Part shown: one piece after another, positions 13,206 to 45,043 of the stretch | How the letters are laid out: each line of letters starts with the position of its first letter | How positions within the stretch are numbered: the stretch's first letter is position 1 | Source: Escherichia phage dhaeg | Sequence record: MN850609.1 | Strand: one strand, 5' to 3' | Length of the DNA: 64,000 nucleotides | Program-made: the position numbers and the translations under genes | The notes under the pieces: generated by a model | The model's database searches: none | Told to the model about the DNA's origin: nothing | Seen by the model: the letters and a program-made list of their open reading frames with translations, nothing else

Positions 13206-13235
13206 GTTTACATCCAAGGACGGATGGAGTATAAT
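13206..13235 (+). promoter_or_regulatory. early promoter (GTTTAC / TATAAT)
   Basis: GTTTAC, 18-bp spacer, TATAAT. Confidence 0.55.
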
Positions 13236-13263
13236 CCTTTTATCAACTACTGAGGAGAATATC

Positions 13264-17488: not shown

Positions 17489-17665
17489 ATGACTATCCAA
17501 GATAAAGAAATTAAAGTCCACCAGTATTATTCAATCAACGGCAAAGCTGTTCTAGTAACTGAAATATCTAGCCTGGACGTGTGGTATACCATAATTGACC
17601 TTAATATTAAAATGATTTGTGACCGTGGTGTATTTTGTTCGATAGCTAAGGAAATTAAATTATGA
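17489..17665 (+). CDS. hypothetical small protein (unlisted ORF)
   Basis: 58 codons read by hand; GAGGAG RBS; ATGA overlap downstream. Confidence 0.4.
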   Translation: MTIQDKEIKVHQYYSINGKAVLVTEISSLDVWYTIIDLNIKMICDRGVFCSIAKEIKL

Positions 17666-17916
17666 GCCTGAAATTACATTCAATGAAAAATGTCATCACC
17701 CTTAATCTGGATGATGAGCGCCTAATTTTTCTCACCGTCACTGATAAGAATATTGAAATTGCAAATGGTCCTAAGACTTATTGCTGCCCAGTGAAGAATT
17801 GGAAGCATGTAACCTTTTTGACCCTGGCCGACCGTCTGAAAGACCTTAAGTTGGATTTGGATATCAAAGATATCCAGTACATTAAAAATCTTATTGGATA
17901 CAAACTGTTGAGGTAA
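17662..17916 (+). CDS. hypothetical protein
   Basis: 84-aa ORF. Confidence 0.45.
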   Translation: MSLKLHSMKNVITLNLDDERLIFLTVTDKNIEIANGPKTYCCPVKNWKHVTFLTLADRLKDLKLDLDIKDIQYIKNLIGYKLLR

Positions 17917-17918
17917 CT

Positions 17919-18212
17919 ATGGGTAAAACTATCCGTCGTAAAGAATTGCCTGTAAAAGATTTTTATTATTCCGGACGCCGTAAAGCACCATACGGCGTAA
18001 GTCAGGAAAGAGTTGAAGAAAATATCTTCCGTTCTGACAAGTGGAAACGTATGCGTGGCGTTGATTCTGAAGTTAAGAATGAAATGAACCGCCAACTTCG
18101 TAAAGAAGTAAGAAAACTGAAAAAAGATGTTTACAGCGACGATGAACCTGATTACAATACTTCTCATCGAGTTGCAAAACGTAAATCAAACGAATGCTAT
18201 CGTTACAGCTGA
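17919..18212 (+). CDS. hypothetical basic protein
   Basis: 97 aa, Lys/Arg-rich. Confidence 0.45.
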   Translation: MGKTIRRKELPVKDFYYSGRRKAPYGVSQERVEENIFRSDKWKRMRGVDSEVKNEMNRQLRKEVRKLKKDVYSDDEPDYNTSHRVAKRKSNECYRYS

Positions 18213-18219
18213 GGAAAAT

Positions 18220-18351
18220 ATGAATATCAAACGTATGCTTTTTAAACAAGGATTATACACTTTAAATGTTGCTCCAAAAGGCGATACGACTAAGTGGTCA
18301 GTAAATGACTGGATTGAATTTATTGATGAAAACGGTAACTGGAAAATTTAA
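18220..18351 (+). CDS. hypothetical small protein
   Basis: internal ATG with GAGGAAAA RBS in ORF 18127-18351. Confidence 0.35.
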   Translation: MNIKRMLFKQGLYTLNVAPKGDTTKWSVNDWIEFIDENGNWKI

Positions 18352-18552
18352 ATGAATCCTGAATCTAAATTATCACAACGAATTGCTGAAGCCCGTCGTC
18401 AGTTCTTTGAAAATATGATAGCCCAAGGTATTGATGACGAAGTTTTTCTAAACTGGTTTTGGAATAACAAATATTCAAAATGCTCAGGAGCAATATTGAT
18501 ATCAGCCGCGATGATGTATGAAGGCTGGAAAGGCGCCAAAGCACAAAAATAG
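18352..18552 (+). CDS. hypothetical protein
   Basis: 66-aa ORF. Confidence 0.4.
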   Translation: MNPESKLSQRIAEARRQFFENMIAQGIDDEVFLNWFWNNKYSKCSGAILISAAMMYEGWKGAKAQK

Positions 18553-18581
18553 TTTACAAACTCTTGGGACCAGAGTATAAT
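18552..18581 (+). promoter_or_regulatory. early promoter (GTTTAC / TATAAT) with palindrome GGGACCA/TGGTCCC bracketing the -10
   Basis: GTTTAC, 18 bp, TATAAT; perfect 7-bp inverted repeat. Confidence 0.6.
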
Positions 18582-18620
18582 GGTCCCACGGATTATAAAT
18601 TTTAAACTGAGGAAATTATT

Positions 18621-18950
18621 ATGTCACAAGCTATTAAAAACGTACTGAACTCTTTCGCTTTCGATAAAGTTAACGAACTGATGAAAACCGGCTTTGTAAC
18701 TCCTCAGGTTCTTGACCAATGGGTTGCTGAACTGTTACCAATCATGCACTCTAAAGACCAAAAAATTGGTAAGAACGGTATTCGTGAAATCCTGGTTCAA
18801 TATATTCTCGACGAGTTTGATGTGGCCGCCTTTGGTGTCGAATCTAAAGCTTGGCAGCCGGGTGAAATCACAGACAAAACCATCCGTCGTATGAAGAATC
18901 AACGTAAGAAAAAATTCGTTGACCTGAAAATTGTTAAGGCTGCTAAATGA
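18621..18950 (+). CDS. hypothetical protein
   Basis: 109 aa; shares TIR and first codons (MSQAI) with gene at 11188. Confidence 0.5.
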   Translation: MSQAIKNVLNSFAFDKVNELMKTGFVTPQVLDQWVAELLPIMHSKDQKIGKNGIREILVQYILDEFDVAAFGVESKAWQPGEITDKTIRRMKNQRKKKFVDLKIVKAAK

Positions 18951-19195
18951 GTAATTTGCCTGAAGATGTATCGGTTATAATAGTCCTTAAAGCTTTAGCC
19001 GGTTTCCAACGTACCCCTATGATGAATAATAGCGAAACTATTATAAAAGCGGCTAATATGTTAAGTGGAAGTCATCGCGATTTCAGGATATTTCCTATAA
19101 GCTCTAAGACCACTTATATGAAAATGCCCGATCCTAAAATAGCTTGGGACGAAGGCATGACATTAAATGAATTTGAGGATTATTTAAATGATTAA
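18947..19195 (+). CDS. hypothetical protein
   Basis: 82-aa ORF, ATGA overlap. Confidence 0.4.
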   Translation: MSNLPEDVSVIIVLKALAGFQRTPMMNNSETIIKAANMLSGSHRDFRIFPISSKTTYMKMPDPKIAWDEGMTLNEFEDYLND

Positions 19196-19454
19196 AATAA
19201 AACTCTCTAATTACGATAAAAACTTGGAAATGATTGCTATGAAAGAAGAACTCCTGAATGATGTCCGCTTTACTGGTTATGCAGTTCAATTTAATAGTGA
19301 TGGGGTTCTCCAGATTGAGGGTGACCACTTTATTATTGAATATGAATTTAAACAGTACTGGCTATACGCTAAAGATGAGGTCGGCGGTATTGATTACGTT
19401 GATGAGTTTGATAATCTTGATGATGCACTAGAAGGAGCCCGATTCCTACAATGA
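19188..19454 (+). CDS. hypothetical acidic protein
   Basis: 88-aa ORF. Confidence 0.4.
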   Translation: MIKIKLSNYDKNLEMIAMKEELLNDVRFTGYAVQFNSDGVLQIEGDHFIIEYEFKQYWLYAKDEVGGIDYVDEFDNLDDALEGARFLQ

Positions 19455-19714
19455 CGCCTGTATCCATAACATTAGCTTATGAAGGCTTAGGATTTTTCTT
19501 AATAGATAACTATATGAATGTTGAGTTTATTTGCGGAGAGACTTCTGAAGTGTGGAAGTCTCATATTTCCAAATACAACCAATCCGAATATTTAGTCCTT
19601 TACCAACAATTCTGCCTTTATATTCAAAGCCAAGGATTTGAAGGAGCCCCTTCCTTCGAAGAGTTCAAAAAAATTCTTGAAACAGTATTTCAGGCTTATT
19701 GCTTACTCCGTTGA
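19451..19714 (+). CDS. hypothetical protein
   Basis: 87-aa ORF. Confidence 0.4.
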   Translation: MTPVSITLAYEGLGFFLIDNYMNVEFICGETSEVWKSHISKYNQSEYLVLYQQFCLYIQSQGFEGAPSFEEFKKILETVFQAYCLLR

Positions 19715-19741
19715 TGCTTTAAACGGGTCTTCAAATACTAT
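19715..19741 (+). promoter_or_regulatory. candidate middle-type promoter (TGCTTTA box + TACTAT)
   Basis: MotA-box-like TGCTTTA about 14 nt upstream of TACTAT. Confidence 0.35.
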
Positions 19742-19780
19742 GATATAATAGACCTATGATTTGAGTTATCTGAGGTAACA

Positions 19781-20338
19781 ATGACCGAAATTAAACTGAC
19801 TAAAAATAACTATGTAAATAATAAGGAGCTTCTGAAAGCCATTACCCAGTGGAAAACAGAGCTCCGAGAAAATACCGATCCTAATAAAATAGTTCGTCAG
19901 AACGATGTTATCGGCTTGGCTATTATGCTCATTGCTGAAGGCCTTTCTAAGCGTTTCAACTTCTCCGGGTATACCCAATCTTGGAAGCAAGAAATGATTG
20001 CTGATGGAATCGAAGCTTCTATTAAAGGCCTTCACAACTTCGACGAAACAAAATACGACAACCCACATGCATATATCACTATGGCTTGTTTTAATGCCTT
20101 TGTTCAGCGTATCAAGAAAGAACGTAAAGAAATGGCAAAGAAATACAGCTACTTCGTCCATAACGTTTATGACGCTAATGACGACGACATGGTAGGTATC
20201 GCAGATGAAACTTTTATCCAGGATATTTACGACAAAATGACTCAGTATGAAACCTCTTTAGTTAAAGCGCCAGGGTCTGATAAGAGCGCCGAATCTAAAG
20301 TTGGTGAGCTGGATTTTTTATATGGAACTCAAGATTAA
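19781..20338 (+). CDS. 55: late-transcription sigma factor gp55
   Basis: 185 aa; near-identity recalled to T4 gp55 ([34 protein letters not shown]). Confidence 0.85.
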
Positions 20339-20549
20339 CCTGGTAGGCCTTTTAGAAGAAGTAGATGGAGAGTATTCGGCAATTCCTTATGTTCTTAAAA
20401 TGTATCTTAAGGATATTGCCAAGCTTCCTATTGTAATAGACCCAAAACACCCTGATTCGGTAGAAATTAAAGCTGAAAAAGGAACATTAACTTATAACTA
20501 TCACGTTACCGACGAAGATTTTTATATAAAACTGAATTACAAGGATTAA
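20322..20549 (+). CDS. hypothetical protein
   Basis: internal ATG of ORF 20301-20549, overlaps gp55 end. Confidence 0.4.
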
Positions 20550-20550
20550 T

Positions 20551-20862
20551 ATGCAAAGCACCGACATTTCTCAATTGACCGAAGAGCAAATTGAAGAAGC
20601 CCAGAAGCGTTTAGAAGAGAATAATGCTAAAGAAGCCGCTTCTCAAGCTGCCAAAATTCTTAAAAAGAATGCCCGTGAAATTAAGCGTCTTAATACACAT
20701 GCTCAGGGCGCTGTTCTCGAAAACAATTTCGAAGCTTACAAATATGCTATAATTAAATTACGTGGTATTTACCGTCAACCAACTACTGACGAAATCGTTA
20801 GAGTTATGTGGGAAACTACGCGTAAACAGATTTGGGAAATTATCAATGGCGCTAGTAAATAA
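20551..20862 (+). CDS. hypothetical protein
   Basis: 103-aa ORF. Confidence 0.45.
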   Translation: MQSTDISQLTEEQIEEAQKRLEENNAKEAASQAAKILKKNAREIKRLNTHAQGAVLENNFEAYKYAIIKLRGIYRQPTTDEIVRVMWETTRKQIWEIINGASK

Positions 20863-21049
20863 ACCCTTTAAACGGCTTCTTATTGGAGCCGCCTTCAGAC
20901 TTCGCTCATACGGTAATATTTGTATTAAGCAGACTGAAACCGAATATAAAATGGTTGGGCAATATTCCGATGAAATTTTTCGGATTGAGCCTGTAGCCAA
21001 GGTTTGGGTGGATTCTCATCAACTTAAGAAATGGTGGAAACGATGGTAG
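20846..21049 (+). CDS. hypothetical basic protein
   Basis: internal ATG of ORF 20762-21049. Confidence 0.35.
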   Translation: MALVNKPFKRLLIGAAFRLRSYGNICIKQTETEYKMVGQYSDEIFRIEPVAKVWVDSHQLKKWWKRW

Positions 21050-21151
21050 GATTTTATGAAAGCGGATGTAACGAAGACGAACATCCGGATTTTTAAGCTT
21101 ATGAATGACGAATACGAAAAAGTTTAAGAGGTCGTATGAATGACGAATTCG

Positions 21152-21313
21152 ATGGATTTTGATAAGATTAAATCTGACAAAAATGAGATGATACTTAAAT
21201 TTGAAGCTGCTCGTATTAAAGCGGAAAATGAAGGTACTATTACTTATAAGAAAATCAAGTTCAGGTCTTCTCATGAACCTCTGTATGGCGTATTAATTGG
21301 TAAAGGAGCTTAG
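21152..21313 (+). CDS. hypothetical small protein (unlisted ORF), preceded by two tandem 8-codon mini-ORFs
   Basis: 53 codons read by hand; stop lies in terminator stem. Confidence 0.3.
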   Translation: MDFDKIKSDKNEMILKFEAARIKAENEGTITYKKIKFRSSHEPLYGVLIGKGA

Positions 21314-21324
21314 GCTCCTTTTTT
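21303..21324 (+). terminator. rho-independent terminator
   Basis: GGAGC-TTAG-GCTCC plus T6. Confidence 0.7.
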
Positions 21325-21337
21325 GCTTTCTGAATGG
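21314..21337 (+). promoter_or_regulatory. candidate middle-type promoter for gene 47 (TGCTTTC box + TAAAAT)
   Basis: MotA-box-like motif 11 nt upstream of TAAAAT. Confidence 0.3.
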
Positions 21338-21370
21338 ATGATAAAATAGATTTAATTAAGCGAGGATATT

Positions 21371-22393
21371 ATGAAAATATTAAACACAGGTGACTGGCAC
21401 CTTGGAGTTAAGAACGACGACCCTTGGGTCCAAAACATTCAATTGACCGGCATTAAAGATGCTATCAATTATTCTAAAGCAAATGGTATTACTGTATGGA
21501 TTCAATACGGTGATATTTTTGATGTCCGTAAAGCCATTACTCATAAGTGTATGGAATTTGCTAGACATATTTCAGATTTGCTTAAAGAAAACGGCATTAC
21601 CATGTATACCGTTGTTGGTAACCATGATGCCCACTACAAAAATACCTTGACTCCTAATGCTGCTTCTGAAGTTCTCGGTAAATATGACCATATCAAGGTT
21701 ATTGAAAAACCTACTACGGTTAACTTTGATGGCACCGAAATTGATTTGATTCCATGGATGTGTGAAGAAAACACGACTGATATCATGGACCATATCAAAA
21801 ATACCACAGCAGATTTCTGTGTTGGTCATTGGGAATTAAATGGTTTCTATTTCTATAAAGGAATGAAATCCCATGGTTTAGAACCTGATTTCCTTAAAAA
21901 GTATAAGCAAGTTTGGTCTGGTCACTTCCACACTATTTCTGATGCAGCAAATGTTAAGTACATTGGTACTCCATGGACCCTGACTGCAGGTGATGAGAAC
22001 GACCCTCGTGGTTTCTGGATTTTCGATACCGAAACCCATAAAATGGATTTCATCATTAATGAAACCTGTTGGCATCGTAAGATTCATTATCCTAATGCGA
22101 CTATCGATTACAAAGATTTTACCAACATAGCAGTTCGTGTTATAGTCGATAAAATTGATGATGGCCTTACTAAGTTCGAATCAGAGCTTGAAAAGGTTGT
22201 TCACTCTTTACGTATTGTGTCTAAGGTAGATAATAGTGTTGATATCGATGATTCTGAAGAGGAAGATGAAGTTAAATCTCTCTTGGATATGATGTATGAT
22301 TATATCGACGCCCTTCCTGATGGCCACACTGAAGCCGATGTTAAAGCCCTTAAGACTATGGCTGCACAACTTTATAATGAGGTTACACGATGA
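21371..22393 (+). CDS. 47: recombination endonuclease subunit gp47 (Mre11-like)
   Basis: 340 aa; phosphoesterase motifs GDWHLG, GNHD, GHWE; strong similarity recalled to T4 gp47. Confidence 0.85.
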   Translation: MKILNTGDWHLGVKNDDPWVQNIQLTGIKDAINYSKANGITVWIQYGDIFDVRKAITHKCMEFARHISDLLKENGITMYTVVGNHDAHYKNTLTPNAASEVLGKYDHIKVIEKPTTVNFDGTEIDLIPWMCEENTTDIMDHIKNTTADFCVGHWELNGFYFYKGMKSHGLEPDFLKKYKQVWSGHFHTISDAANVKYIGTPWTLTAGDENDPRGFWIFDTETHKMDFIINETCWHRKIHYPNATIDYKDFTNIAVRVIVDKIDDGLTKFESELEKVVHSLRIVSKVDNSVDIDDSEEEDEVKSLLDMMYDYIDALPDGHTEADVKALKTMAAQLYNEVTR

Positions 22394-22653
22394 CTTTAGA
22401 TGAATTCAAAAAATCGGGACTTGAACTGGAACACGACTGTATAGTTATTGATGATGATGGTCAACCTAGTACAATTAAGTTCTGGTTTGAAGCCGTGAGC
22501 ACTCGTGATACCGGCGAGCTTATTAAAGTTTATGTTGCTACCGATTGGGCTGTAGAATTTAGTTTTAATGTAATGGAAGATGATACTCCAGAGGCATTAA
22601 TTCATATGGCTGAATCATGCATCAAGGATGCTTATAACGATGAAGACTTTTAA
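22390..22653 (+). CDS. hypothetical acidic protein
   Basis: 87-aa ORF between 47 and 46. Confidence 0.4.
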   Translation: MTLDEFKKSGLELEHDCIVIDDDGQPSTIKFWFEAVSTRDTGELIKVYVATDWAVEFSFNVMEDDTPEALIHMAESCIKDAYNDEDF

Positions 22654-24322
22654 GTTAAAGAAAGTAACGTATAAAAATATTATGTCGGTAGGGCAGCAGC
22701 CTATTACAATCCAACTTGACAAGGTCCAAAAGACCTTAGTCACTGGTAAAAATGGTGCAGGGAAATCAACATTCCTTGAAGCTGTAACATTTGCTCTGTT
22801 CGGTAAGCCTTTTCGCGATGTTAAGAAAGGGCAGTTGATTAACTCAAGTAACAAGAAAGACCTTTTGGTCGAACTGTGGATGGAATATGATGGCAAAGAA
22901 TACTATATCAAACGCGGGCAAAAACCCAACGTTTTTGAAATCTCTTGTGACGGTGAACGTCTTGATGAATCTGCCAGCAGTAAAGACTTCCAAGCGGAAT
23001 TTGAACAGCTTATCGGAATGTCCTACGCAAGCTTTAAACAAATTGTCGTACTCGGCACAGCTGGATATACCCCTTTTATGGGCCTATCCACTCCTGCAAG
23101 AAGAAAACTCGTCGAAGACCTCTTAGAGGTTTCTGTATTAGCGGATATGGATAAGTTGAACAAATCTTTGATTCGTGAGACTAATAGCCAAATCCAAGTA
23201 ATAGACGTTAAGCAAGATTCTATTACCCAACAAATTAAAATTTATAACGACAACGAAGAACGTCAACGTAAATTATCCGGCGAGAACGCTGCCCGTCTAC
23301 AATTAATGTATGATGAGCTCGTTAAAGAAGCCAGGACTGCGAAGGCGAGCATAGAATCCCTGACTGATGAATTACTCAATGTTATCGTAGATGATGACCC
23401 TAGCAACTCCATGAGTGACCTGAGTAATAAAGGATTTGCAATCAAAAATGATATGGCAACCTTTACAAAGGTAATTAAGTTATACGAAACCGGTGGCCAT
23501 TGTCCTACGTGTATGCAAGGGTTAGAAGAGCATGGTAATATCCTTACTAAAATTAAGGATAAAAACTTTGAGCTTCAAAAATCTTTGGATAAGATTAATG
23601 AGCAATACCAAGAACTCAAGCTCATTAAAGACCAAGTAACCGAACAACGCAATAAAGCTTTGGCTATTAAATCTCAGATAGCTACTCATAAGCAGCAAGC
23701 CATTACTGCTGTAGAGAAAGCTAAAAAGGTTAAGGTATTAATTGACCAGGCAGCAGCTGAGTTCGTAAGTAATGCCGAAGAGATTGCTGCGCTTCAAGCA
23801 GAGCTTGATAAAATCGTCTCTACCAAATCGTCCTTGGTAATGGAAAAATATCATCGTGGAATTCTGACAGAAATGTTGAAGGATACTGGTATTAAAGGTT
23901 CCATTATTAAGAAATACATTCCTATCTTTAATAAGCAGATTAATTCTTATTTGAAGATTATGGAAGCGGACTACGTCTTTACCCTAGACGAAGAATTCAA
24001 TGAGACGATTAAATCACGTGGACGTGAAGACTTTAGTTATGCTTCATTTTCACAGGGTGAGAAAGCACGTATTGATATCGCACTACTTTTTACATGGCGT
24101 GATATTGCTTCTAGGGTATCAGGTGTTAATATATCCACACTGATTCTTGATGAGGTATTTGACAGTGCAACTGACGCTGAAGGCGTTAAGAGCATTGCAA
24201 CCATCTTGAATAGCCTTGAGGATACGAACGTGTTCATTATCTCTCACCGAGACCATGACCCACAAGCTTATGGCCAACATCTTCAAATGAAGAAAGTTGG
24301 ACGATTCACGGTGATGGAATGA
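22640..24322 (+). CDS. 46: recombination endonuclease subunit gp46 (Rad50/SbcC-like ATPase)
   Basis: Walker A GKNGAGKST, coiled-coil middle with CPTC zinc hook, Walker B LILDE; start at MKTFKL by alignment with T4. Confidence 0.85.
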   Translation: MKTFKLKKVTYKNIMSVGQQPITIQLDKVQKTLVTGKNGAGKSTFLEAVTFALFGKPFRDVKKGQLINSSNKKDLLVELWMEYDGKEYYIKRGQKPNVFEISCDGERLDESASSKDFQAEFEQLIGMSYASFKQIVVLGTAGYTPFMGLSTPARRKLVEDLLEVSVLADMDKLNKSLIRETNSQIQVIDVKQDSITQQIKIYNDNEERQRKLSGENAARLQLMYDELVKEARTAKASIESLTDELLNVIVDDDPSNSMSDLSNKGFAIKNDMATFTKVIKLYETGGHCPTCMQGLEEHGNILTKIKDKNFELQKSLDKINEQYQELKLIKDQVTEQRNKALAIKSQIATHKQQAITAVEKAKKVKVLIDQAAAEFVSNAEEIAALQAELDKIVSTKSSLVMEKYHRGILTEMLKDTGIKGSIIKKYIPIFNKQINSYLKIMEADYVFTLDEEFNETIKSRGREDFSYASFSQGEKARIDIALLFTWRDIASRVSGVNISTLILDEVFDSATDAEGVKSIATILNSLEDTNVFIISHRDHDPQAYGQHLQMKKVGRFTVME

Positions 24323-24510
24323 GTGATTTTATAACAGGCCAGCATTTGTTGGCCGTTCCAGAAATAAAGAGATACGTTTTAGTTAACAACTTCTCTGGAG
24401 ATGAACATCTTGTTACTGAAGAATATCTCCAAAATGCTTTTAAGTCAGAATATGATAAAATCATGTCAAATAGAAATCCAGCATGGTTTGTCTACGAGTA
24501 CTTTGATTAA
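24319..24510 (+). CDS. hypothetical protein
   Basis: 63-aa ORF, ATGA overlap. Confidence 0.4.
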   Translation: MSDFITGQHLLAVPEIKRYVLVNNFSGDEHLVTEEYLQNAFKSEYDKIMSNRNPAWFVYEYFD

Positions 24511-24512
24511 AT

Positions 24513-24536
24513 TGCTTTAAAATATTGATTTATAAT
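24513..24536 (+). promoter_or_regulatory. candidate middle-type promoter (TTGCTTTA box, 11 bp, TATAAT)
   Basis: MotA-box consensus-like motif with canonical spacing. Confidence 0.4.
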
Positions 24537-24566
24537 ACATTTACCAACCAAATGAGAGAAAATATT

Positions 24567-24986
24567 ATGTTTGCTACTTCTAATGGCGTTACCGTTAAAG
24601 ATATCCAAGTTAAAACCATCCGTACTGATTCCAACCCACATAATCAGAACCGTATTCGTAAATCATGGGTACTGAATATTGATACCAACTCTGCACGTCG
24701 ATTGCAGTCTCTTCCACAAGAAACTAAGTTCATGCTCTACGGTATTATTGATAACGACGTATCTGATAAGTGGGTAGAAATCATGCGTCGCCATTATAAT
24801 GATTCACTGGCTGCAGGTGCTAAACTTGTTATCGACCGCGACGGTTCTGAACGTTTAGAAGATGATTATTGCGTCGACCCTGATGAGCAGTTGCTTGAAG
24901 CCGGTGCTATTGTTGCTTCCCAGATTCCAGAGTATATTGAATCTCTGCCTGAATCCATTCGTAAACAAATGATCGTAATTGCTTAA
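24567..24986 (+). CDS. hypothetical protein at the rpbA position between 46 and 45
   Basis: internal ATG of ORF 24525-24986; identity by position only. Confidence 0.3.
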   Translation: MFATSNGVTVKDIQVKTIRTDSNPHNQNRIRKSWVLNIDTNSARRLQSLPQETKFMLYGIIDNDVSDKWVEIMRRHYNDSLAAGAKLVIDRDGSERLEDDYCVDPDEQLLEAGAIVASQIPEYIESLPESIRKQMIVIA

Positions 24987-25011
24987 TAATTTGACTTGAT
25001 AAGGAAACATT

Positions 25012-25710
25012 ATGAAATTCTCTAAAGAAACCCTGAATATTCTTAAAAACTTCTCCGGTATTAACCCAGGCATTATGCTTAAACCAGGTAACACCATTCT
25101 GACCCGATCTGTTACCGGTGCAAGTTATGGTGAAGCTACTGTAAGTGATACATTCGATATCGAAGCAGCCATCTATGATTTGAACGGCTTCTTAAGTATT
25201 CTGTCTTTGGTATCGGAAAGTGCTGAAGTTTCAGTAAGTGAAGACCAAACCACATTAATTATTAAAGACCAACGTTCAACAATTAAGTGGCCTATTGCTG
25301 ACCCAAGCACAATCGCATTCCCAAGTAAAGCTATCCCGTTCCCTGTGGCTGAAGTTATTTTCGATTTGAAAGCCGAAGATTATCAACAGTTGATGCGTGT
25401 GTCCTCTGGTCTGAGTATTGATACATTTGCAATCACTGTAGACGATGGTAAAATTGTTATCAACGGTTATAAACAAGTCGACGATAAAGAATTAACTCGT
25501 CCATTGTATTCTCTGGTCGTGGCTGACCATGATGGTCCTGACTTTAAGTTCATCATTAACAAAACCAATATGAAAATGATGCCAGCCGATTATCATGTAT
25601 TGCTATGGGCGCGCGGTGAAGGTCAGGATGCTCGATTTGCAGCTAAGTTTGAAGGTACACAAGCTTCTTATGTATTAGCTATGGAAGCAGGCTCAAGCCA
25701 CTCGTTCTAA
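25012..25710 (+). CDS. 45: sliding clamp gp45
   Basis: 232 aa; high similarity recalled to T4 gp45 throughout. Confidence 0.9.
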   Translation: MKFSKETLNILKNFSGINPGIMLKPGNTILTRSVTGASYGEATVSDTFDIEAAIYDLNGFLSILSLVSESAEVSVSEDQTTLIIKDQRSTIKWPIADPSTIAFPSKAIPFPVAEVIFDLKAEDYQQLMRVSSGLSIDTFAITVDDGKIVINGYKQVDDKELTRPLYSLVVADHDGPDFKFIINKTNMKMMPADYHVLLWARGEGQDARFAAKFEGTQASYVLAMEAGSSHSF

Positions 25711-25716
25711 AGCATA

Positions 25717-25733
25717 GGGAGGAATTTCCTCCC
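25717..25733 (+). other. stem-loop GGGAGGA-ATT-TCCTCCC between clamp and clamp-loader genes
   Basis: perfect 7-bp inverted repeat, no T-tract, directly before TATAAT. Confidence 0.45.
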
Positions 25734-25771
25734 TTGGAGTATAATGTAAAAACAAACCTGAGGAAATTAAT

Positions 25772-26731
25772 ATGCTTACAGTAAATAATAATGAATTCAT
25801 GTTCGAACAGAAATATCGTCCAGGTACTTTATCTGAATGTATTCTGCCTGCTCATGATAAAGAAACTCTCCAAGCCATTGTTAATAAGGGCCTAATCCCT
25901 AACATTATCCTAGTCTCTGCTTCACCAGGCACAGGTAAAACTACCGTGGCTAAAGCATTGTGTGCTGATACAAATTCAGACATGTTGTTTGTTAACGGTT
26001 CCGACTGTCGTATTGATTTCGTTCGTAACGAACTTACTCGTTTTGCATCTTCTAAATCTATCGAAGGTAAACGTAAGGTAATTGTTATTGACGAATTCGA
26101 CCGTGCTGGTGTAGCTGAAGCTCAACGCCACCTTCGTTCATTCTTAGAGGCCTATTCCTCAAACTGTTCTGTAATTATTACAGCAAACAATATTGATGGT
26201 ATCATCGGTCCACTTCAATCTCGTTGTCGCGTAATTAAATTTGGTGAAGCCACTCCAGCTGACCAAACAGCCATGATGAAAGAAATGATTCATCGTGCTG
26301 TAGCAATTTGTAAAAACGAAAATATCGAAGTCGAAGACCTTAAAGTTATTGCTGCTTTAGTTAAACAAAACTTCCCTGACTTCCGTAAAACAGTTAACCA
26401 ACTAGACCGTTATTCCTCAAGTGGTAAAATCGATGCAGGCATTTTGAGTATTGTAATGAATACCAATTCGCCTATTGATGAAGTAGTGGCTGCACTGAAA
26501 GATAAAAACTTTAAAGAACTCCGTGCATTAGCTCCTCGTCATGTCAATGATTACGCCAACTTTATTATGGCACTGGCTAACGAACTCTATGGTAAATTGC
26601 CTGGACCGAGCATTGTTAGAATGTATGAAATCGTCGGTGAAAATAACCAATACCATGGTATTGCTGCTAACCCAGAAATTCACCTGACTTATCTTTTTAT
26701 CCAACTTGCTCTGGAGCTCCAATGGCTATAA
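25772..26731 (+). CDS. 44: clamp loader large subunit gp44 (AAA+)
   Basis: 319 aa; Walker A SPGTGKTT; near-identity recalled to T4 gp44. Confidence 0.9.
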   Translation: MLTVNNNEFMFEQKYRPGTLSECILPAHDKETLQAIVNKGLIPNIILVSASPGTGKTTVAKALCADTNSDMLFVNGSDCRIDFVRNELTRFASSKSIEGKRKVIVIDEFDRAGVAEAQRHLRSFLEAYSSNCSVIITANNIDGIIGPLQSRCRVIKFGEATPADQTAMMKEMIHRAVAICKNENIEVEDLKVIAALVKQNFPDFRKTVNQLDRYSSSGKIDAGILSIVMNTNSPIDEVVAALKDKNFKELRALAPRHVNDYANFIMALANELYGKLPGPSIVRMYEIVGENNQYHGIAANPEIHLTYLFIQLALELQWL

Positions 26732-27294
26732 GTCTTTTTGATGATGACGTTGAACTGAATGAACATGAAGTTGCTTGGAAACAACGTAACGACGCTGCTA
26801 TTCAAGCCTTAGCCGATTCATTTAAAGAAAAGGCTGAAAACGAATTGTTTGCCATTATGAACGATATCACATACGGTAAAAAACAACGTAACTTAGCTCA
26901 ATCAGAAAACTATAATCAATTTTGGCTAGATAATAGTTTGAGCCAACACGTAGATTGCATTATGCAAGCCGCGATGGTTAACTGTCTTAAACTTGACGAC
27001 CAAAGCCACTTCAACTATCTTTTACATGCTGTTCCTAAGGGTAAGAGATTTGGTAAATGGGCTAAGGCCCATGATGATGAAGTTAGTGTAGTTTTTATTA
27101 CTCGTTTATTAATGAAATACCATTCAATTAATAATGATGACGCTTATCGTTATCTCGAGACTTATAAAATTAAAGGCCATCTTCCGGCGATGCTTAAGAA
27201 GATGAAAGGGTTGGTTACGGACGAGTTCCTGAAATCCGTAACTAAAAATGTGAAAGAACAAAAAGACTTGAAAAAGAAAGCATTGGAATGGTAA
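26722..27294 (+). CDS. 62: clamp loader small subunit gp62
   Basis: 190 aa; similarity recalled to T4 gp62; overlaps gp44 stop. Confidence 0.85.
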   Translation: MAISLFDDDVELNEHEVAWKQRNDAAIQALADSFKEKAENELFAIMNDITYGKKQRNLAQSENYNQFWLDNSLSQHVDCIMQAAMVNCLKLDDQSHFNYLLHAVPKGKRFGKWAKAHDDEVSVVFITRLLMKYHSINNDDAYRYLETYKIKGHLPAMLKKMKGLVTDEFLKSVTKNVKEQKDLKKKALEW

Positions 27295-27300
27295 ATTAAA

Positions 27301-27663
27301 ATGATTGAAATTACTCTGAAGCAACCTGAAGACTTCCTAAAAGTGAAAGAGACCCTGACTCGTATGGGTATCGCTAATAATAAAGAAAAGAAACTATATC
27401 AATCCTGCCACATTTTGCAAAAGCAAGGACGGTATTATATTGTCCACTTTAAAGAGATGTTGCGTATGGACGGTCGCCAGGTAGATATCGATGGTGAAGA
27501 CTACCAACGCCGCGATTCTATCGCCCAGCTTCTTAAGGATTGGGGACTTATTGATATTGTAGACGATTCTGAATTGTTCGAAATTACTAATAATTTCCGT
27601 GTCATTTCCTTTAAACAGAAAAATGACTGGGAACTATTGTCTAAGTATACCATTGGTAATTAA
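27301..27663 (+). CDS. regA: translational repressor RegA
   Basis: 120 aa; similarity recalled to T4 RegA. Confidence 0.85.
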   Translation: MIEITLKQPEDFLKVKETLTRMGIANNKEKKLYQSCHILQKQGRYYIVHFKEMLRMDGRQVDIDGEDYQRRDSIAQLLKDWGLIDIVDDSELFEITNNFRVISFKQKNDWELLSKYTIGN

Positions 27664-27664
27664 T

Positions 27665-27880
27665 ATGATTCTTGAAATTGAAATGTGTGAACGTCTTAAA
27701 GAGGTGTACGGGCTTTCACCAACTCAAACTGTTTTTGACCTTTCCGAAGAGCTCCAAATAGAATTTCAAAAGGACCTCCATAAGTTACTACATCCAGGTC
27801 AGCAAGTCTTCCAGGCTATGATTAGAACTAAAGGCGAAGATGGCAATCCGACTATTAAACGTTTGACAATAGAAATTTAA
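27665..27880 (+). CDS. hypothetical protein
   Basis: internal ATG of ORF 27599-27880 directly after regA stop. Confidence 0.35.
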   Translation: MILEIEMCERLKEVYGLSPTQTVFDLSEELQIEFQKDLHKLLHPGQQVFQAMIRTKGEDGNPTIKRLTIEI

Positions 27881-27884
27881 GCAA

Positions 27885-27905
27885 AGGGACTTCGGTCCCT
27901 TTTTT
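27885..27905 (+). terminator. rho-independent terminator
   Basis: AGGGAC-TTCG-GTCCCT plus T5; overlaps -35 region of polymerase promoter. Confidence 0.7.
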
Positions 27906-27963
27906 GGAGTATAATGATTCATCAACAAACAAAAGACAATCACTCGTCTATAAAGGAAATGAA

Positions 27964-30675
27964 ATGCAAGAATTCTATTTGACAGTCGAACAAATCGGTG
28001 ATAATATTCTCGAACGTTACATCGATAAAAATGGTAACGAACGTAGTCGTGAAGTTCCTTACAAGCCTACAATGTTTATGCATGCTAACCCAGAGCAAGC
28101 CGTAAAATATATTGACATCTACGGTAAGGGCTGTGTTAAGAAAGAATTCGATTCAATGCGCGATGCTTCTCAGTGGATGAAGCGCATGGACGATATGGGT
28201 CTCGAAGCCCTTGGTATGGATGACTATAAATTAGCCTATTTGTCTGATACCTATCGTAAAGAAATCAAGTATGATTCTTCTAAGATTCGTATTGCTAACT
28301 TCGACATCGAGGTAACATCTCCTGATGGATTCCCTGAACCTGCCCAGGCTAAACATCCTATCGATGCCATTACTCACTACGACTCGATTGATGATAAATT
28401 CTATGTATTCGACCTTTTAGTTTCACCTTATGGTACGGTCGAAGAGTGGTCGATTAAAATCGCTGAGAAACTCCAAGACGAAGGTGGTGACGAAGTTCCA
28501 CAGGAAATCATTGACAAAATCGTTTATCTTCCGTTTAATTCTGAAGAAGAAATGATGCTTGAGTATCTTAATTTCTGGCAACAAAAAACTCCTGTGATTT
28601 TGACTGGATGGAACGTTGAATCATTTGACGTGCCATACGTTTATAACCGTCTGAAAAATCTGTTTGGTGAGAACACTGCTAAGCGATTAAGCCCGCATCG
28701 TAAGACTCGTGTTAAAGTTATCGAGAACATGTACGGCGCTCGCGAAATTATTACACTGTTCGGTATCTCTGTTCTGGATTATATCGACCTTTATAAAAAA
28801 TTCAGCTTTACTAACCAGCCTTCTTATTCTCTGGATTACGTTTCTGAATATGAATTGAAAGTAGGTAAGTTGAAATATGATGGTCCTATCTCCAAGTTAC
28901 GTGAGACGAACCACCAACGATATATTTCCTATAACATTATCGACGTATATCGTGTTGTGCAGATTGATATGAAACGCCAGTTCATTCTTCTTAGTCTGGA
29001 CATGGGTTACTATGCCAAGATGCAGATTCAGTCGGTGTTCAGTCCAATTAAGACTTGGGACGCTATTATCTTTAATAGCCTTAAAGAACAGGGTAAAGTT
29101 ATTCCTCAGGCCAAATCGCATGCGGTTCAACCTTATCCAGGCGCTTTCGTTAAGGAACCTATTCCTAACGCGTACAAATATGTAATGAGTTTCGACCTTA
29201 CATCTCTGTACCCGAGTATCATTCGACAAGTGAATATAAGCCCAGAGACCATCGCAGGGACATTCGCAAACGCGCCGATACATGAATATATTGCCGGAAC
29301 TGCTCCGCGTCCTAGCGACACCTACAGTTGCTCTCCTAACGGCATGATGTACTATAAAGACCGTGATGGTGTGATTCCTACAGAAATCACGAAGGTGTTC
29401 TTACAACGTAAAGAACATAAAGGTTATATGCTTGCAGCTCAACGTAATGGTGAGTTAATTAAAGAAGCATTAGAAAATCCTAATCTGTCTGTTGATAGTC
29501 CATTGGATGTTGATTATCGTTTCGACTTCTCTGACGAAGTCAAAGCCCAGATTAAAAAATTGTCAGCCTCTTCTTTAAAAGAAATGTTGTTCAAAGCCGA
29601 ACGTACTGAAGTCGCAGGTATGACTGCTCAGATTAACCGTAAATTGCTTATCAACTCCCTTTATGGTGCACTTGGTAACGTATGGTTCCGTTACTATGAC
29701 CTCAGGAACGCAACTGCAATAACATTGTTTGGTCAAATGGCCCTCCAATGGATTGAACGTAAGGTTAACGAATATCTGAATGGTGTGTGCAAGACTGAAA
29801 ACCAGAAGTTCGTGCTCTATGGTGATACCGACTCCATTTATGTTAAGGCCGATGCAATCATCAATAAAGTAGGCGAAGACAAATTCCGTGATACCAACCA
29901 CTGGGTCGACTTCTTAGATAAATTTGCACGTGAACGTATGGAACCAGCTATTGATGCAGGCTTCCGTGAGATGTGTGAATACATGAACAATAAACAGCAC
30001 TTGATGTTCATGGACCGAGAAGCTATCGCTGGTCCTCCACTTGGTTCTAAAGGTCTTGGTGGATTCTGGACAGGCAAGAAACGTTATGCACTGAACGTTT
30101 GGGACATGGAAGGTACTCGCTATGCCGAACCACACTTGAAAATCATGGGTCTCGAAACCCAGAAATCAAGTACACCTAAAGCGGTTCAGAAAGCTCTGAA
30201 AGAATGTATCCGACGTATGCTTCAAGAAGGCGAGGCCTCTTTGCAAGAATATTTCAAACAGTTTAATAAGGAATTTAACGAACTAGACTATGTAAGCATT
30301 GCTGCAGTATCCAGTGCTAACAACATCGAGAAATATAATGAAGGCGGTTTCCCTGGTTCTAAATGTCCGTACCACATCAAAGGTTGCTTAGCTTACATGC
30401 GTGCTTCTGCCGGTGATTTGACTATGCCTCGTATCGTTGATGGTGAAAAGGTATATGTACTGCCACTTAAAGAAGGCAACCCGTTCGGTGAAGCTTGTAT
30501 GGCATGGCCGTCAGGTATTGAACTTCCGATTCAGATTCGTGACCAAGTCCTCCGTTGGATGGACTACAATGTACTGTTCCAAAAGACCTTTATCAAACCT
30601 CTGACCGGTTTTACTGAGTCTGCTAAAATCGACTACGAGAAAAAAGCAACATTATTTGACATGTTTGACTTTTAA
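27964..30675 (+). CDS. 43: DNA polymerase gp43 (family B, 3'-5' exonuclease proofreading)
   Basis: 903 aa from MQEFYLTVEQIG; Exo motifs, KxxxNSxYG, YGDTDS; listed ORF start 27904 spans the TATAAT. Confidence 0.95.
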   Translation: MQEFYLTVEQIGDNILERYIDKNGNERSREVPYKPTMFMHANPEQAVKYIDIYGKGCVKKEFDSMRDASQWMKRMDDMGLEALGMDDYKLAYLSDTYRKEIKYDSSKIRIANFDIEVTSPDGFPEPAQAKHPIDAITHYDSIDDKFYVFDLLVSPYGTVEEWSIKIAEKLQDEGGDEVPQEIIDKIVYLPFNSEEEMMLEYLNFWQQKTPVILTGWNVESFDVPYVYNRLKNLFGENTAKRLSPHRKTRVKVIENMYGAREIITLFGISVLDYIDLYKKFSFTNQPSYSLDYVSEYELKVGKLKYDGPISKLRETNHQRYISYNIIDVYRVVQIDMKRQFILLSLDMGYYAKMQIQSVFSPIKTWDAIIFNSLKEQGKVIPQAKSHAVQPYPGAFVKEPIPNAYKYVMSFDLTSLYPSIIRQVNISPETIAGTFANAPIHEYIAGTAPRPSDTYSCSPNGMMYYKDRDGVIPTEITKVFLQRKEHKGYMLAAQRNGELIKEALENPNLSVDSPLDVDYRFDFSDEVKAQIKKLSASSLKEMLFKAERTEVAGMTAQINRKLLINSLYGALGNVWFRYYDLRNATAITLFGQMALQWIERKVNEYLNGVCKTENQKFVLYGDTDSIYVKADAIINKVGEDKFRDTNHWVDFLDKFARERMEPAIDAGFREMCEYMNNKQHLMFMDREAIAGPPLGSKGLGGFWTGKKRYALNVWDMEGTRYAEPHLKIMGLETQKSSTPKAVQKALKECIRRMLQEGEASLQEYFKQFNKEFNELDYVSIAAVSSANNIEKYNEGGFPGSKCPYHIKGCLAYMRASAGDLTMPRIVDGEKVYVLPLKEGNPFGEACMAWPSGIELPIQIRDQVLRWMDYNVLFQKTFIKPLTGFTESAKIDYEKKATLFDMFDF

Positions 30676-40745: not shown

Positions 40746-40937
40746 ATGACTGCAATGTGTACAGGCTCTAAGATTTCTGTATTCGAACTGTTCGAAGAAT
40801 ATGAAATCGTATCAAAAGACCAAGAAGCTATCCATATTATTGCAGGTGATGGCTTAACTTGGATTATTCCACTTTACCACGAAGATACGTATGAAGTCAC
40901 TGATGCAAATGGTGATAAAGCTATTTTCGTAATATAA
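40746..40937 (+). CDS. hypothetical acidic protein
   Basis: 63-aa ORF. Confidence 0.4.
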   Translation: MTAMCTGSKISVFELFEEYEIVSKDQEAIHIIAGDGLTWIIPLYHEDTYEVTDANGDKAIFVI

Positions 40938-40940
40938 ATA
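40933..40940 (+). promoter_or_regulatory. candidate T4-type late promoter TATAAATA
   Basis: exact TATAAATA octamer 13 nt upstream of small ORF 40954. Confidence 0.35.
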
Positions 40941-40953: not shown

Positions 40954-41115
40954 ATGAAATCTTTTAAAGAAGTTATGAACGAAGATATGGTCGCAGGCGA
41001 TGCTGATGGAAATCCATCTAATATTGCCTCCGGAACTACCTCAGGCGCAGTCGTCAACAAAGGGCCTGAACAAATCCCATCTAAAAAGCGTAAAGAAAAA
41101 TCCGAAAACGAATGA
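40954..41115 (+). CDS. hypothetical small protein (unlisted ORF)
   Basis: 53 codons read by hand; AGGAG RBS. Confidence 0.35.
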   Translation: MKSFKEVMNEDMVAGDADGNPSNIASGTTSGAVVNKGPEQIPSKKRKEKSENE

Positions 41116-41141
41116 TATAATGGCTCTATTAATTTAGAGCC
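41116..41141 (+). promoter_or_regulatory. extended -10 promoter (TGATATAAT) followed by hairpin GGCTCTA/TAGAGCC upstream of primase
   Basis: TGnTATAAT then 7-bp inverted repeat. Confidence 0.45.
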
Positions 41142-41153
41142 CAAGGAAAAATA

Positions 41154-42182
41154 ATGTCATATGTCGATAGAGAATTTGCTGTACGTGCCTTGAATTACCA
41201 ACCTAAATTCAGACAAGTAACTGGTAGTGATTTTAAATTAAACTGTCGTTGCCGTGTATGTGGTGACTCCCAAAAAGATGAAAACAAAGCTCGATTCTGG
41301 GCCTATCCGGCCAATGACGGCTCTGTAATGCTACACTGTTTTAACTGTGATTATTCGGCAGGAATTAAGAAGTACCTATACGAATACGAACCTGATTTAT
41401 ATCGGGAATATATTCTTGAGAAACATAAAGAGCAATCGTTCGGGAGACAAGCTGCACCTAAGGTGGAGATATCTGAAAAAATTAAAGCTAAGATGCCTGT
41501 AATCGAAAAGCTTAATTTCTGTGAACGATTAGATAGAATGCCGAAGGACCATCCTATTATCAAATATGTGACGTTACGTTGCATTCCTGAAAATAAATGG
41601 AATCGTCTATGGTTTACTAAAGAATGGCCTGCATTGGTTAACTCAGTTAATCCAGGAACCTATTCTAAAGAAATGCCTGAGCCCCGTTTGGTTATTCCTA
41701 TTTTCAATAAGGATAAACAAATAGAAAGTTTCCAGGGTCGAGCCTTGCGTAAAGATGCCCCACAAAAATATATTACAATAAAAGCTCATGACCAAGCTAC
41801 AAAAATATATGGAATGGATACGGTTGACGAACGTCAATTGGTATGGGTTATGGAAGGGCCTATTGATTCTTTATTTGTCCCTAATGCCATAGCAATTACT
41901 GGTGGGTCATTAGACTTATCAGTAGTTCCATGTAAAGAAACAAGAGCGTGGGTAATGGACAATGAACCCCGTCATCCTGACACAATTAAGCGTATGCAAC
42001 GCCTAGTTGATGCTGGCGAAAGGGTTCTATTCTGGGACAAGGCTCCGTGGCCTTCTAAAGATATAAATGATATGGTTATGAAAGATAAAGCTGATATAAA
42101 TGATGTATTGGCATATATGAAAGCTAATATAGCCCAAGGGTTAATGGCAAAAATGAGGCTTTCAAAATATTCTAAAATTTAG
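41154..42182 (+). CDS. 61: DNA primase gp61 (zinc finger + Toprim)
   Basis: 342 aa; CRCRVCGDS...HCFNC zinc-binding region; Toprim-like EGPIDSL, DNEPR. Confidence 0.8.
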   Translation: MSYVDREFAVRALNYQPKFRQVTGSDFKLNCRCRVCGDSQKDENKARFWAYPANDGSVMLHCFNCDYSAGIKKYLYEYEPDLYREYILEKHKEQSFGRQAAPKVEISEKIKAKMPVIEKLNFCERLDRMPKDHPIIKYVTLRCIPENKWNRLWFTKEWPALVNSVNPGTYSKEMPEPRLVIPIFNKDKQIESFQGRALRKDAPQKYITIKAHDQATKIYGMDTVDERQLVWVMEGPIDSLFVPNAIAITGGSLDLSVVPCKETRAWVMDNEPRHPDTIKRMQRLVDAGERVLFWDKAPWPSKDINDMVMKDKADINDVLAYMKANIAQGLMAKMRLSKYSKI

Positions 42183-42379
42183 ACAGGAACTCCGCTAAAG
42201 AATCCAATTATGCTTAACACGTGTTCCATTGTAACCGCTGGTAAAATTACCCCTTGGCTAGCGGCTACAGGGACTACTAGAAGATTCCAAAGGAATACGT
42301 CTAGCGCAAGAAAACCTAACATCATTTTCTTGTCTTTCTTTTCTGCCAATTTCCAGATTTGGTAAAAAATACTGCCCAT
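42179..42379 (-). CDS. small membrane protein on the opposite strand (convergent with primase)
   Basis: 66 aa; AGGAGG RBS 6 nt upstream of ATG on minus strand; no competing + strand ORF across 42183-42470. Confidence 0.55.
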   Translation of the reverse strand: MGSIFYQIWKLAEKKDKKMMLGFLALDVFLWNLLVVPVAASQGVILPAVTMEHVLSIIGFFSGVPV

Positions 42380-42408
42380 GTTATCCTCCTGTTAAATTAA
42401 TATTTATT

Positions 42409-42432
42409 CGCTTTAGTCTAACAGTTTATAAT
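42409..42432 (+). promoter_or_regulatory. candidate middle-type promoter for gene 56 (CGCTTTA box, 11 bp, TATAAT)
   Basis: MotA-box-like motif and TATAAT. Confidence 0.35.
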
Positions 42433-42470
42433 TATCTAACTTATTAATGAATTGAAAAAGGAAAAATATA

Positions 42471-42992
42471 ATGGCTCATTTTAATGAATGTTCTCAACTT
42501 ATTGCTGGTGCTGATAAAGCTGAAGAAGCTTATTTTAATGCTCTGATTCACGAAGATAAAGACCCTCTGCAAGTTATGCTTGATATGCAGAAATCATTAC
42601 AGGTTCGTCTGGCCACTGAAAAATCGGAATTCAACACCAATCCTGATGAACTAGCTACAGCAGGTCAAGTTGTTGATTGGCTTCGCAACCAGAAAGATTA
42701 TATTGATGATGAATTCCGTGAACTGCTGACTTCTCTTGGCGGTATGAGTAATGGCGAAAAAGCTGCCTCTAGTGTGTGGAAGCCTTGGAAAGCCCAACAT
42801 GCTGAATTCCGTAATCGTCGTATTGACGAGTTGTCTCCTGAAGACCAGCTCGAAATCAAATTCGAGATGATTGATATTCTGCACTTTGTTCTTAATATGT
42901 TCCAGGGTCTTGGACTGACCGCTGAAGAAATCTTTAAACTGTATTATCTGAAAAATGCCGAGAACTTTGCTCGTCAAGACCGAGGTTATTAA
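42471..42992 (+). CDS. 56: dCTP pyrophosphatase (dCTPase/dUTPase, gp56, MazG-like)
   Basis: 173 aa; near-identity recalled to T4 gp56 at both termini. Confidence 0.85.
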   Translation: MAHFNECSQLIAGADKAEEAYFNALIHEDKDPLQVMLDMQKSLQVRLATEKSEFNTNPDELATAGQVVDWLRNQKDYIDDEFRELLTSLGGMSNGEKAASSVWKPWKAQHAEFRNRRIDELSPEDQLEIKFEMIDILHFVLNMFQGLGLTAEEIFKLYYLKNAENFARQDRGY

Positions 42993-43160
42993 TGCCTCGT
43001 TTAAATAAACGTCAACTCAAAAAGTTGAATAAGAAAAGGGCTTCGGCCGCTATTTTATTACGTAACGAAATAACTAAAGAAATAGACAGAGAAATCATTG
43101 AAGCTTTGGCGAATTCAAAGTAATAAATACGCCTGTAATTAAACAACAAAGGAGTTAATT

Positions 43161-44377: not shown

Positions 44378-44855
44378 ACTAGAATTCCATGTGCGTGATT
44401 CATCCGGTCAAACGCGGCCTTATGATGCCACGGCTGCCCTTATCCTTGTTGACAACGGCATGAATTCTATCACCCAATTAGAAACACGATTAAAAGATAT
44501 TAAGCTGCCAGAAAATATTCTAATGAAGGCATATCATAATAAAAATGTTGATGTTGCTGAGGGGTGTCCTTTTAGCCTGGCTGAAGCATTACATATCAAG
44601 GGTTATCGTTATCCGGCGGACCCATATGCCGAAGGAACAATGGATATTTTCTATAAAGATACTGATAGAATGTCCAACGAACGTCTTAAAGGTCGTACAT
44701 ATTTGATTTCCACCACCGAAGACCTTACTGAAGTCGAACGACAGATTTGGAAACACTTTGATATTGGCTTACGTTTTACTATGACTGAAGAAGCTATTCG
44801 TGATGCTAAGTTACGAGCTCGTATGTATGGTTATGGTCCTATCGGTGGTTACTAA
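44364..44855 (+). CDS. hypothetical protein
   Basis: 163 aa; AGAGGAAAA RBS. Confidence 0.5.
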
Positions 44856-45043
44856 TGGACTTATTTGATATGTTCGTCATTCCGGACCCTGAGCCTGAAA
44901 CAACTCAGGAGCCGCCTATTGACCTTGTCAATGAACTTGATATGATTATACAGAAGCACGGCTTTAAGTTGCCTAAAGATGCCCTGGCCGACCTAGCTTC
45001 TTACTATCAAGACCCTCCACCATGGGCACCTTGGGTAAAATAA
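44855..45043 (+). CDS. hypothetical acidic protein
   Basis: 62-aa ORF. Confidence 0.4.
   Translation: MDLFDMFVIPDPEPETTQEPPIDLVNELDMIIQKHGFKLPKDALADLASYYQDPPPWAPWVK

Follow-up and report, generated by a model that had tools for sequence, protein, structure and literature searches.

A minus-strand gene convergent on the primase gene of Escherichia phage dhaeg: a conserved T-even-type family with a predicted late membrane product

We analyzed a 64,000-nt stretch of DNA from Escherichia phage dhaeg (sequence record MN850609.1), referred to below as the window, and focused on a short open reading frame (ORF) on its minus strand at 42179..42379, which converges on the DNA primase gene (gene 61). 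This ORF is probably a genuine late gene, conserved among T-even-type phages, with a 66-residue inner-membrane protein of the family phrog_2024 as its product. This strongly conserved, predicted late membrane protein is found in about 800 sequenced T-even-type phages, the model phage T4 among them. The gene is already annotated in Escherichia phage CLB_P2 and hundreds of relatives and belongs to a catalogued orphan family, so its novelty is low.

A conserved coding sequence on the minus strand

The region around the ORF (41100-43100) shows 100% identity to CLB_P2 (OL770107; Dhakavirus, Tevenvirinae) and 92-94% identity to JS98-type phages. The coding sequence (CDS; 42179..42379, minus strand) starts with ATG, has 66 codons, and is supported by the ORF listing, the deposited annotation, the PHROG match, the ratio of non-synonymous to synonymous substitution rates (dN/dS) and the third-position bias. 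A Shine-Dalgarno (SD) sequence, AGGAGG (42385..42390, minus strand), is found 5 nt 5' of the ATG. At its other end the ORF meets the primase gene (41154..42182, plus strand; phrog_47, E=3.8e-97, and annotation) tail to tail, with a CDS overlap of 4 nt (42179..42182, both strands) in which the interlocked stop codons share 2 nt. The ORF length, the canonical SD sequence and the overlapping stops had all been described in an earlier model-made reading of the letters (the sequence-only reading), and all are there. The same reading regarded the ORF as the only convincing minus-strand gene in 64 kb, and this holds as well: all other deposited CDS in the window are on the plus strand, and a crude census of minus-strand ATG ORFs (at least 50 amino acids (aa), with an SD-like motif) returned this ORF alone.

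Conservation of the ORF in relatives, a check named beforehand by the sequence-only reading, gave a clear answer. The frame is intact across about 800 phage records, and dN/dS is 0.07-0.26 for close Dhakavirus pairs and 0.12-0.22 for Tequatrovirus pairs. As compared to Bp7, 33.7 of 41.7 synonymous sites have changed, versus 14.3 of 156 non-synonymous sites, and the 48 differences are distributed over codon positions 1, 2 and 3 as 9, 4 and 35. Synonymous sites are saturated (about 34 of 42 changed) in the comparisons with Bp7, Marfa and Gaprivervirus, with dN of 0.10-0.24. The frame of the minus-strand ORF is also the sole frame without stops in all relatives compared. The claim that the plus strand has no competing ORF across 42183-42470 needs an amendment: a 51-codon ATG ORF does exist there (42210..42365, opposite the minus-strand ORF), but it is spurious because it is broken in relatives, with stops in IME341 and Bp7 and the ATG lost in Marfa and pzk-kv8. 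Purifying selection on the protein encoded by the minus-strand ORF is strong. Its shortness, the lack of a Pfam family and its absence from the annotation of the JS98, PEi20 and T4 reference records might recommend a chance ORF within an untranslated spacer between the primase gene and gene 56, a reading of negligible probability that is refuted by dN/dS values far below 1 with saturated synonymous sites, by the frame kept intact in about 800 genomes while no other frame is open in all relatives, and by the conservation of the SD sequence and the promoter.

A late-type promoter and a predicted membrane product

Directly upstream of the ORF we found a T4-type late-promoter element, AATAAATA (42401..42408, minus strand; putatively of the gp55-dependent class, judged by sequence and conservation), which ends 21 nt before the ATG. 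In T4, the gp55/gp33 polymerase reads late promoters with the consensus TATAAATA (PMC3014915); of 50 T4 late sites listed, 32 match it perfectly and 9 carry A at -13, the commonest variant (PMC2988020). Promoters of this class have their element at -10 and require no -35 element. The element in the window, AATAAATA, is this A(-13) variant. Its TAAATA part ends 14-21 nt before the ATG in 12 of the 12 lineages compared, in intergenic sequence that is otherwise unalignable, and the perfect TATAAATA is found upstream of the ORF in five lineages (Bp7, Marfa, pzk-kv8, ZX14 and CIP9). The T4 homologue has the late-promoter-type element GATAAATA upstream (NC_000866 17710-17717, plus strand). Most lineages compared also have GGAGG upstream of the ATG; RB69 has AAGGAG, and the proximal of two Gaprivervirus copies has GGTGG.

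The heptamer ATAAATA is about four-fold depleted in the 64-kb window (6 observed versus 26.6±5.2 expected), and TATAAATA is found twice versus 6.9 expected. Five of the heptamers are on the plus strand (4838, 15992, 40934, 43123 and 54809) and the one at 42401 is the lone minus-strand copy. From the depletion it seems that stray late promoters are selected against within the early region, and the avoidance of the heptamer can serve as an easy guide to those late promoters that are likely to be functional in genomes of this kind. We note that surviving sites are located just upstream of soc and 61.1, and that the site at 54809 is about 40 nt ahead of a 50-aa ORF. The octamer preceding the late gene soc (43122-43129) is identical to the one upstream of the minus-strand ORF, AATAAATA. 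A perfect TATAAATA is also seen at 40933-40940 (plus strand), 13 nt before the start of 61.1 and just upstream of the primase gene; T4 has no perfect TATAAATA before 61.1. Sigma-70-like matches upstream of the ORF are at chance level (9 versus 6.8±2.4 expected).

Since a conserved late-promoter element is directly upstream, we infer that the ORF is expressed late in infection, which agrees with the suggestion of a separately timed product in the sequence-only reading. After the onset of replication, RNA polymerase with gp55, gp33 and gp45 would initiate a few bases downstream of AATAAATA; the late transcript would have a short leader (<20 nt) with AGGAGG exposed, so that the protein would be made late.

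The product had been described as a hydrophobic protein with one or two transmembrane (TM) helices. One clear TM segment stands: the best 19-residue Kyte-Doolittle window covers residues 20-38 (mean 2.05), and together with AlphaFold2 it places a predicted TM helix at codons 19-41 (42257..42325, minus strand). It is followed by a further hydrophobic tail; the C-terminal 19 residues are hydrophobic, with no K or R and one E. The segment before the TM helix contains five K/R, and the pattern of basic N-terminus, TM segment and hydrophobic tail is also found in the T4, RB69 and distant members. The window protein sequence lacks both a signal peptide and a lipobox. AlphaFold2, given the family alignment, models helices at 3-12, 17-41 and 51-62, with pLDDT (predicted local distance difference test) of 79-84 for the 17-41 block. 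Foldseek searches against viral models returned family members only (E 0.01-0.03), other matches being insignificant, for a model whose three short helices carry little fold information.

According to the positive-inside rule, the protein would insert with its N-terminus in the cytoplasm. The last modeled helix is probably interfacial because it is too short for a bilayer span, and the protein may have a hairpin topology. The invariant Asn in the TM segment, together with conserved prolines and the small residues A39 and G43, suggests helix-helix association; the buried Asn and the Pro/Gly pattern would mediate association of the protein with itself or with a partner membrane protein.

The family and its place in T4-like genomes

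The window protein matches phrog_2024 (function unknown) with E=6.5e-28, over residues 1-64 of the 65-position profile. A hidden Markov model (HMM) built from our 25-sequence alignment A4 matches the window ORF with E=1.7e-29 (the ORF itself is a row of A4). Against Pfam, the window protein alone has chance-level matches only, and the same is true of 25 family members against Pfam and NCBIfam, so that no holin, toxin or exclusion family in these two databases is matched by any of them. With the CLB_P2 protein as the query, tblastn gave 121 phage records, which are from Dhaka-, Marfa-, Gapriver-, Kanagawa- and Gelderland-type phages; the T4 protein gave 693, for about 800 in total. A scan of 1.84 billion representative proteins with the family HMM found just 18 clusters, so the family is narrow. 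Among the ORFs of the window, the family HMM finds no paralogue.

The T4 homologue has 66 codons and is found at the same site, between dam and gene 61 (NC_000866 17738..17938, plus strand; 3239-3439 in our extracted locus L004). It is unannotated in NC_000866 and AF158101 and annotated in hundreds of T4-like records, under names such as dam.1 (T4T), RB69ORF029w (RB69) and RB32ORF030w (the tag in the RB51 record). Because the reference records leave it unannotated, omics data mapped to them would miss the homologue. Like the window protein, these three proteins have 63-69 aa and share a W-N-x4-P-x-A-x3-G-x3-P core; like the window ORF, their genes are tail to tail with gene 61, with a late-promoter-like element and GGAGG upstream, and follow the same strand logic. 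T4 genetics is easy, and offers a cheap route to function for a widespread orphan family.

The family signature is W31-N32-x4-P37-x-A39-x3-G43-x3-P47 (codons 31-47; 42239..42289, minus strand), as seen in alignments A2 and A4. M1, W31, N32, P37 and P47 are invariant in A4, A39 nearly so, and G43 is invariant in the 12 sequences of A2; the window protein has all six signature residues (W31, N32, P37, A39, G43 and P47). The core LWNxxxxPxAxxxGxxxPxV aligns the T4 and Dhaka-type subfamilies. Outside it the two differ widely: the window protein belongs to a subfamily separate from the T4, distal Gaprivervirus and RB69 proteins, with 18-28% identity over the full alignment, and BLASTP against the T4 subfamily aligns just the 25-residue core (44% identity). 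The immediate neighborhood differs too, since T4 has dam between the ORF and gene 56, whereas in CLB_P2 gene 56 is directly next.

The CLB_P2 deposit names the ORF hypothetical protein UNI73151.1, and it is left unannotated in the records of JS98 and PEi20, as in T4. Names in the source records are all 'hypothetical protein' except for stray 'dCTP pyrophosphatase' and 'DNA packaging ATPase' labels and one UniRef 'Holin'. We discounted these three as propagated or automatic names rather than evidence, because they are isolated among hundreds of 'hypothetical protein' entries.

To describe the position of the family we used primase loci collected independently of the ORF, with an alignment-based query (a single-protein query had given 9 loci). 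A family member converges on primase in 23 of the 45 loci, and no member is found elsewhere within the 1.5-kb flanks. Wherever the gene was examined in T4-like loci, across eight genera, it is placed tail to tail with the primase end of the early operon, and convergent placement is also seen in T4, RB69, Marfa, CIP9, PEi20 and two metagenomic T4-like contigs. The overlap with primase is 4 nt in Tequatro-, Mosig-, Dhaka-, Gapriver-, Marfa- and Kanagawavirus and in an unassigned lineage (L026/L027), and 24 nt in ZX14; in CGG4-1 the two genes are a few bases apart. In Bp7, a homing endonuclease gene (locus L096, 808-1398) separates the ORF from the primase gene, with the ORF and its promoter intact. 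We note that homing endonuclease genes are inserted between the primase gene and gene 56 in several Dhakavirus-type phages.

Gaprivervirus has two tandem members (loci L020-L022, 2526-2947; L103, 511-820), a T4-like distal copy that bears the promoter and, a few bases downstream, a promoterless Dhaka-like proximal copy. The proximal copy is frameshifted or N-terminally shortened in VR20 and P896, as well as in several further records of Gaprivervirus or of unclassified coliphages (e.g. SP18, RZ), and the degraded copies retain the stop overlap with primase. We read these truncations as compatible with redundancy between the subfamilies and not as a sign that the ORF is non-coding.

T4-like genomes ordinarily place late genes inside their early regions in this way, convergent and on the opposite strand, and normal T4 late-gene architecture thus explains the odd orientation of the ORF. 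A known case is soc, which is a late gene inside the early cluster, about 0.8 kb away, with the identical octamer and a short leader with an SD sequence. The two differ in strand and product: soc shares the strand of the early genes and its product is a soluble protein that decorates the capsid, while the ORF is on the opposite strand and its predicted product is a membrane protein.

Candidate roles and neighboring features

Distant members, found in siphovirus-like contigs and one prophage, match phrog_2024 with E of 1e-9 to 6e-11 (loci L104 3260-5082, L106 4237-6918, L109 4279-6089, L111 3980-5213, L112 4818-7714, and L114 and L115 4263-5160). Their usual context is a large tail or tail-tip gene, a 94-aa TM/coiled-coil gene, endonuclease VII and then the family member, with start and stop codons of neighboring genes overlapping; conserved uncharacterised genes of about 180 and 106 aa often follow on the 3' side. 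In one lineage the family member heads a four-gene cluster that ends in a T4-type lysozyme, and is the only predicted TM protein of the four. A lysozyme or endolysin gene is 1-3.4 kb away in three further contexts; the member is about 1.3 kb from endolysin in the siphovirus part of the DCP80 record, and about 1.5 kb from lysozyme at the prophage end. No lysozyme is found within the examined flanks of three other siphovirus-like contexts. The companion of about 180 aa, used as a tblastn query, found one record (DCP80) among 50,697 phage records, and a siphovirus family member used in the same way found none.

The DCP80 record (PQ671644; locus L112 is 17620-30129) is itself unusual. It is 141 kb long, is filed as Gaprivervirus, and contains a siphovirus-like block of tail-tip, endonuclease VII and endolysin genes plus T4-like sequence; it looks like a chimeric assembly. 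Its family member (about 5812-5985 of L112) is unannotated.

From these contexts and the predicted properties of the protein, we tentatively suggest an accessory role in late envelope events such as lysis timing. A bolder and rather unlikely version is that T-even phages, T4 itself among them, have in this family a late membrane component that has so far gone unrecognised. In that case the buried Trp-Asn/Pro helix of the protein would partner a lysis or envelope protein (e.g. to tune the triggering of holin T or lysis inhibition), and the convergent late transcript of the gene might also pair with a late 61.1-61 mRNA.

A more direct possibility, which we regard as doubtful, is that the protein works together with holin T, RI or the spanins in the inner membrane, as a holin, an antiholin or some other factor in lysis timing. 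As with holins and antiholins (T4 T, RI, classes I-III), the product is predicted to be a small, late, membrane-embedded protein of the inner membrane, and the distant member heading the T4-type lysozyme cluster, together with the DCP80 and prophage members near endolysin or lysozyme, points in the same direction, as does the 'Holin' name of one member in UniRef. That name is a single automatic one amid hundreds of 'hypothetical protein' entries, next to plainly wrong labels; no holin model in Pfam or NCBIfam is matched by the 25 members, even at E up to 10, and Foldseek matches to annotated holins outside the family are insignificant (E >=0.95). Holins typically have a hydrophilic, charged C-terminus, whereas the window protein has its charge at the N-terminus (the five K/R) and a hydrophobic C-terminus without a charged hydrophilic segment. 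In T4-like phages the gene is not beside e, t, rI or rIII, although T4 lysis genes are scattered.

Several observations weigh against a late membrane gene with a role in lysis or the envelope. In CLB_P2, T4, RB69 and other lineages the promoter element is a single-base variant of the consensus and not the perfect octamer, and the AlphaFold2 model, with a mean pLDDT of 70, is only moderately confident. Several T4-like lineages among the primase loci examined lack the family (one of these has co-directional genes directly after primase), which is therefore dispensable for the core life cycle. The lysis link comes from the gene neighborhood in a few distant relatives, and late genes adjoin anyway in small phage genomes. 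T4-like phages have a complete known lysis set including holin T, and we know of no r-type locus at the map position of the ORF. Our literature search found no paper and no experiment on phrog_2024, dam.1 or ORF029w.

The sequence-only reading proposed antisense interference with primase. In its full form, the function would be at the RNA level: a late minus-strand transcript would silence primase and the upstream early genes by collision or double-stranded RNA, and the ORF would be secondary. From the ORF to 41000 the minus strand lacks a predicted intrinsic terminator, so read-through antisense into primase is plausible, and the tail-to-tail overlap is kept in most genera. Because of the perfect TATAAATA at 40933-40940 (plus strand) before 61.1-61, both strands could be transcribed late and duplex RNA is conceivable; at several T4 sites, transcripts of both strands are known, made at different times (PMC2988020). 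Against this stand the strong purifying selection on the protein, with residues invariant despite about 20% overall identity, the Bp7 arrangement, which keeps ORF and promoter though a homing endonuclease gene intervenes before primase, the two tandem protein copies in Gaprivervirus, and the siphovirus homologues without any primase neighbor. No Rfam family is found in 41500-43000, and an untranslated antisense tail would be a likely Rho target. We therefore consider this reading improbable, and the sequence-only proposal is not supported as the selected function: it is the peptide that is selected, the ORF is retained when separated from primase, and some homologues have no primase neighbor, so that we treat an antisense effect on primase mRNA as a possible by-product.

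The exclusion, holin-like and toxin-like labels in the sequence-only reading are guesses. It is likewise unlikely that the ORF encodes a peptide for superinfection exclusion or with toxin-like action, which would keep other phages from entering or harm the membrane. The protein is small and hydrophobic, and its siphovirus relatives sit just after tail-tip genes, a position where exclusion genes such as cor and llp are often found. Exclusion proteins need to act early, however, as T4 Imm and Sp do, whereas the ORF has a late-type promoter upstream, with sigma-70-like matches at chance level, and the protein lacks a signal peptide or lipobox. Imm and Sp are likewise small envelope accessory proteins of the same phages, and sp is about 2 kb upstream in the same cluster, but both are early genes on the early strand, while the late-type promoter of the ORF is on the other strand. 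The ORF product has no detectable similarity to the products of other window ORFs, as the family HMM matches none of them in a window that contains sp and, by T4 gene order, presumably imm. No type I-style antisense small RNA partner is evident, Rfam being without a match in 41500-43000; the strand opposite the ORF is read-through of the primase operon. A late membrane protein remains our preferred reading of the locus.

Around the ORF the genes are arranged as in the early cluster of T4: 41, dmd, 61.4, sp, 61.1, 61 (primase), 56 (dCTPase) and soc. Gene 56 (42471..42992, plus strand; phrog_173, E=1e-44, and annotation) is the divergent neighbor of the ORF. Upstream of it we found a candidate middle promoter (42410..42432, plus strand), with the MotA-box-like GCTTTA (42410-42415), an 11-nt spacer and TATAAT (42427-42432); the middle-promoter consensus is (a/t)(a/t)(a/t)TGCTTtA placed 12±1 bp from TAtaaT (PMC2988021). 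This candidate abuts the late-promoter element of the ORF, back to back, and the 91-bp intergenic region thus appears to hold two back-to-back promoters of differing temporal class.

Other observations concern the annotation and a metagenomic contig. In the RASTtk annotation of OL770107, eleven consecutive CDS of very unequal sizes (window 7624-14707) are all called 'thioredoxin', and a 62-aa protein at 44855-45043 is named 'molybdenum ABC transporter'; these look like propagated mislabels. In a short metagenomic contig (locus L110, 129-1383), the distant family member P0124 (59 aa) is directly followed by a 352-aa gene with a RelA_SpoT domain.

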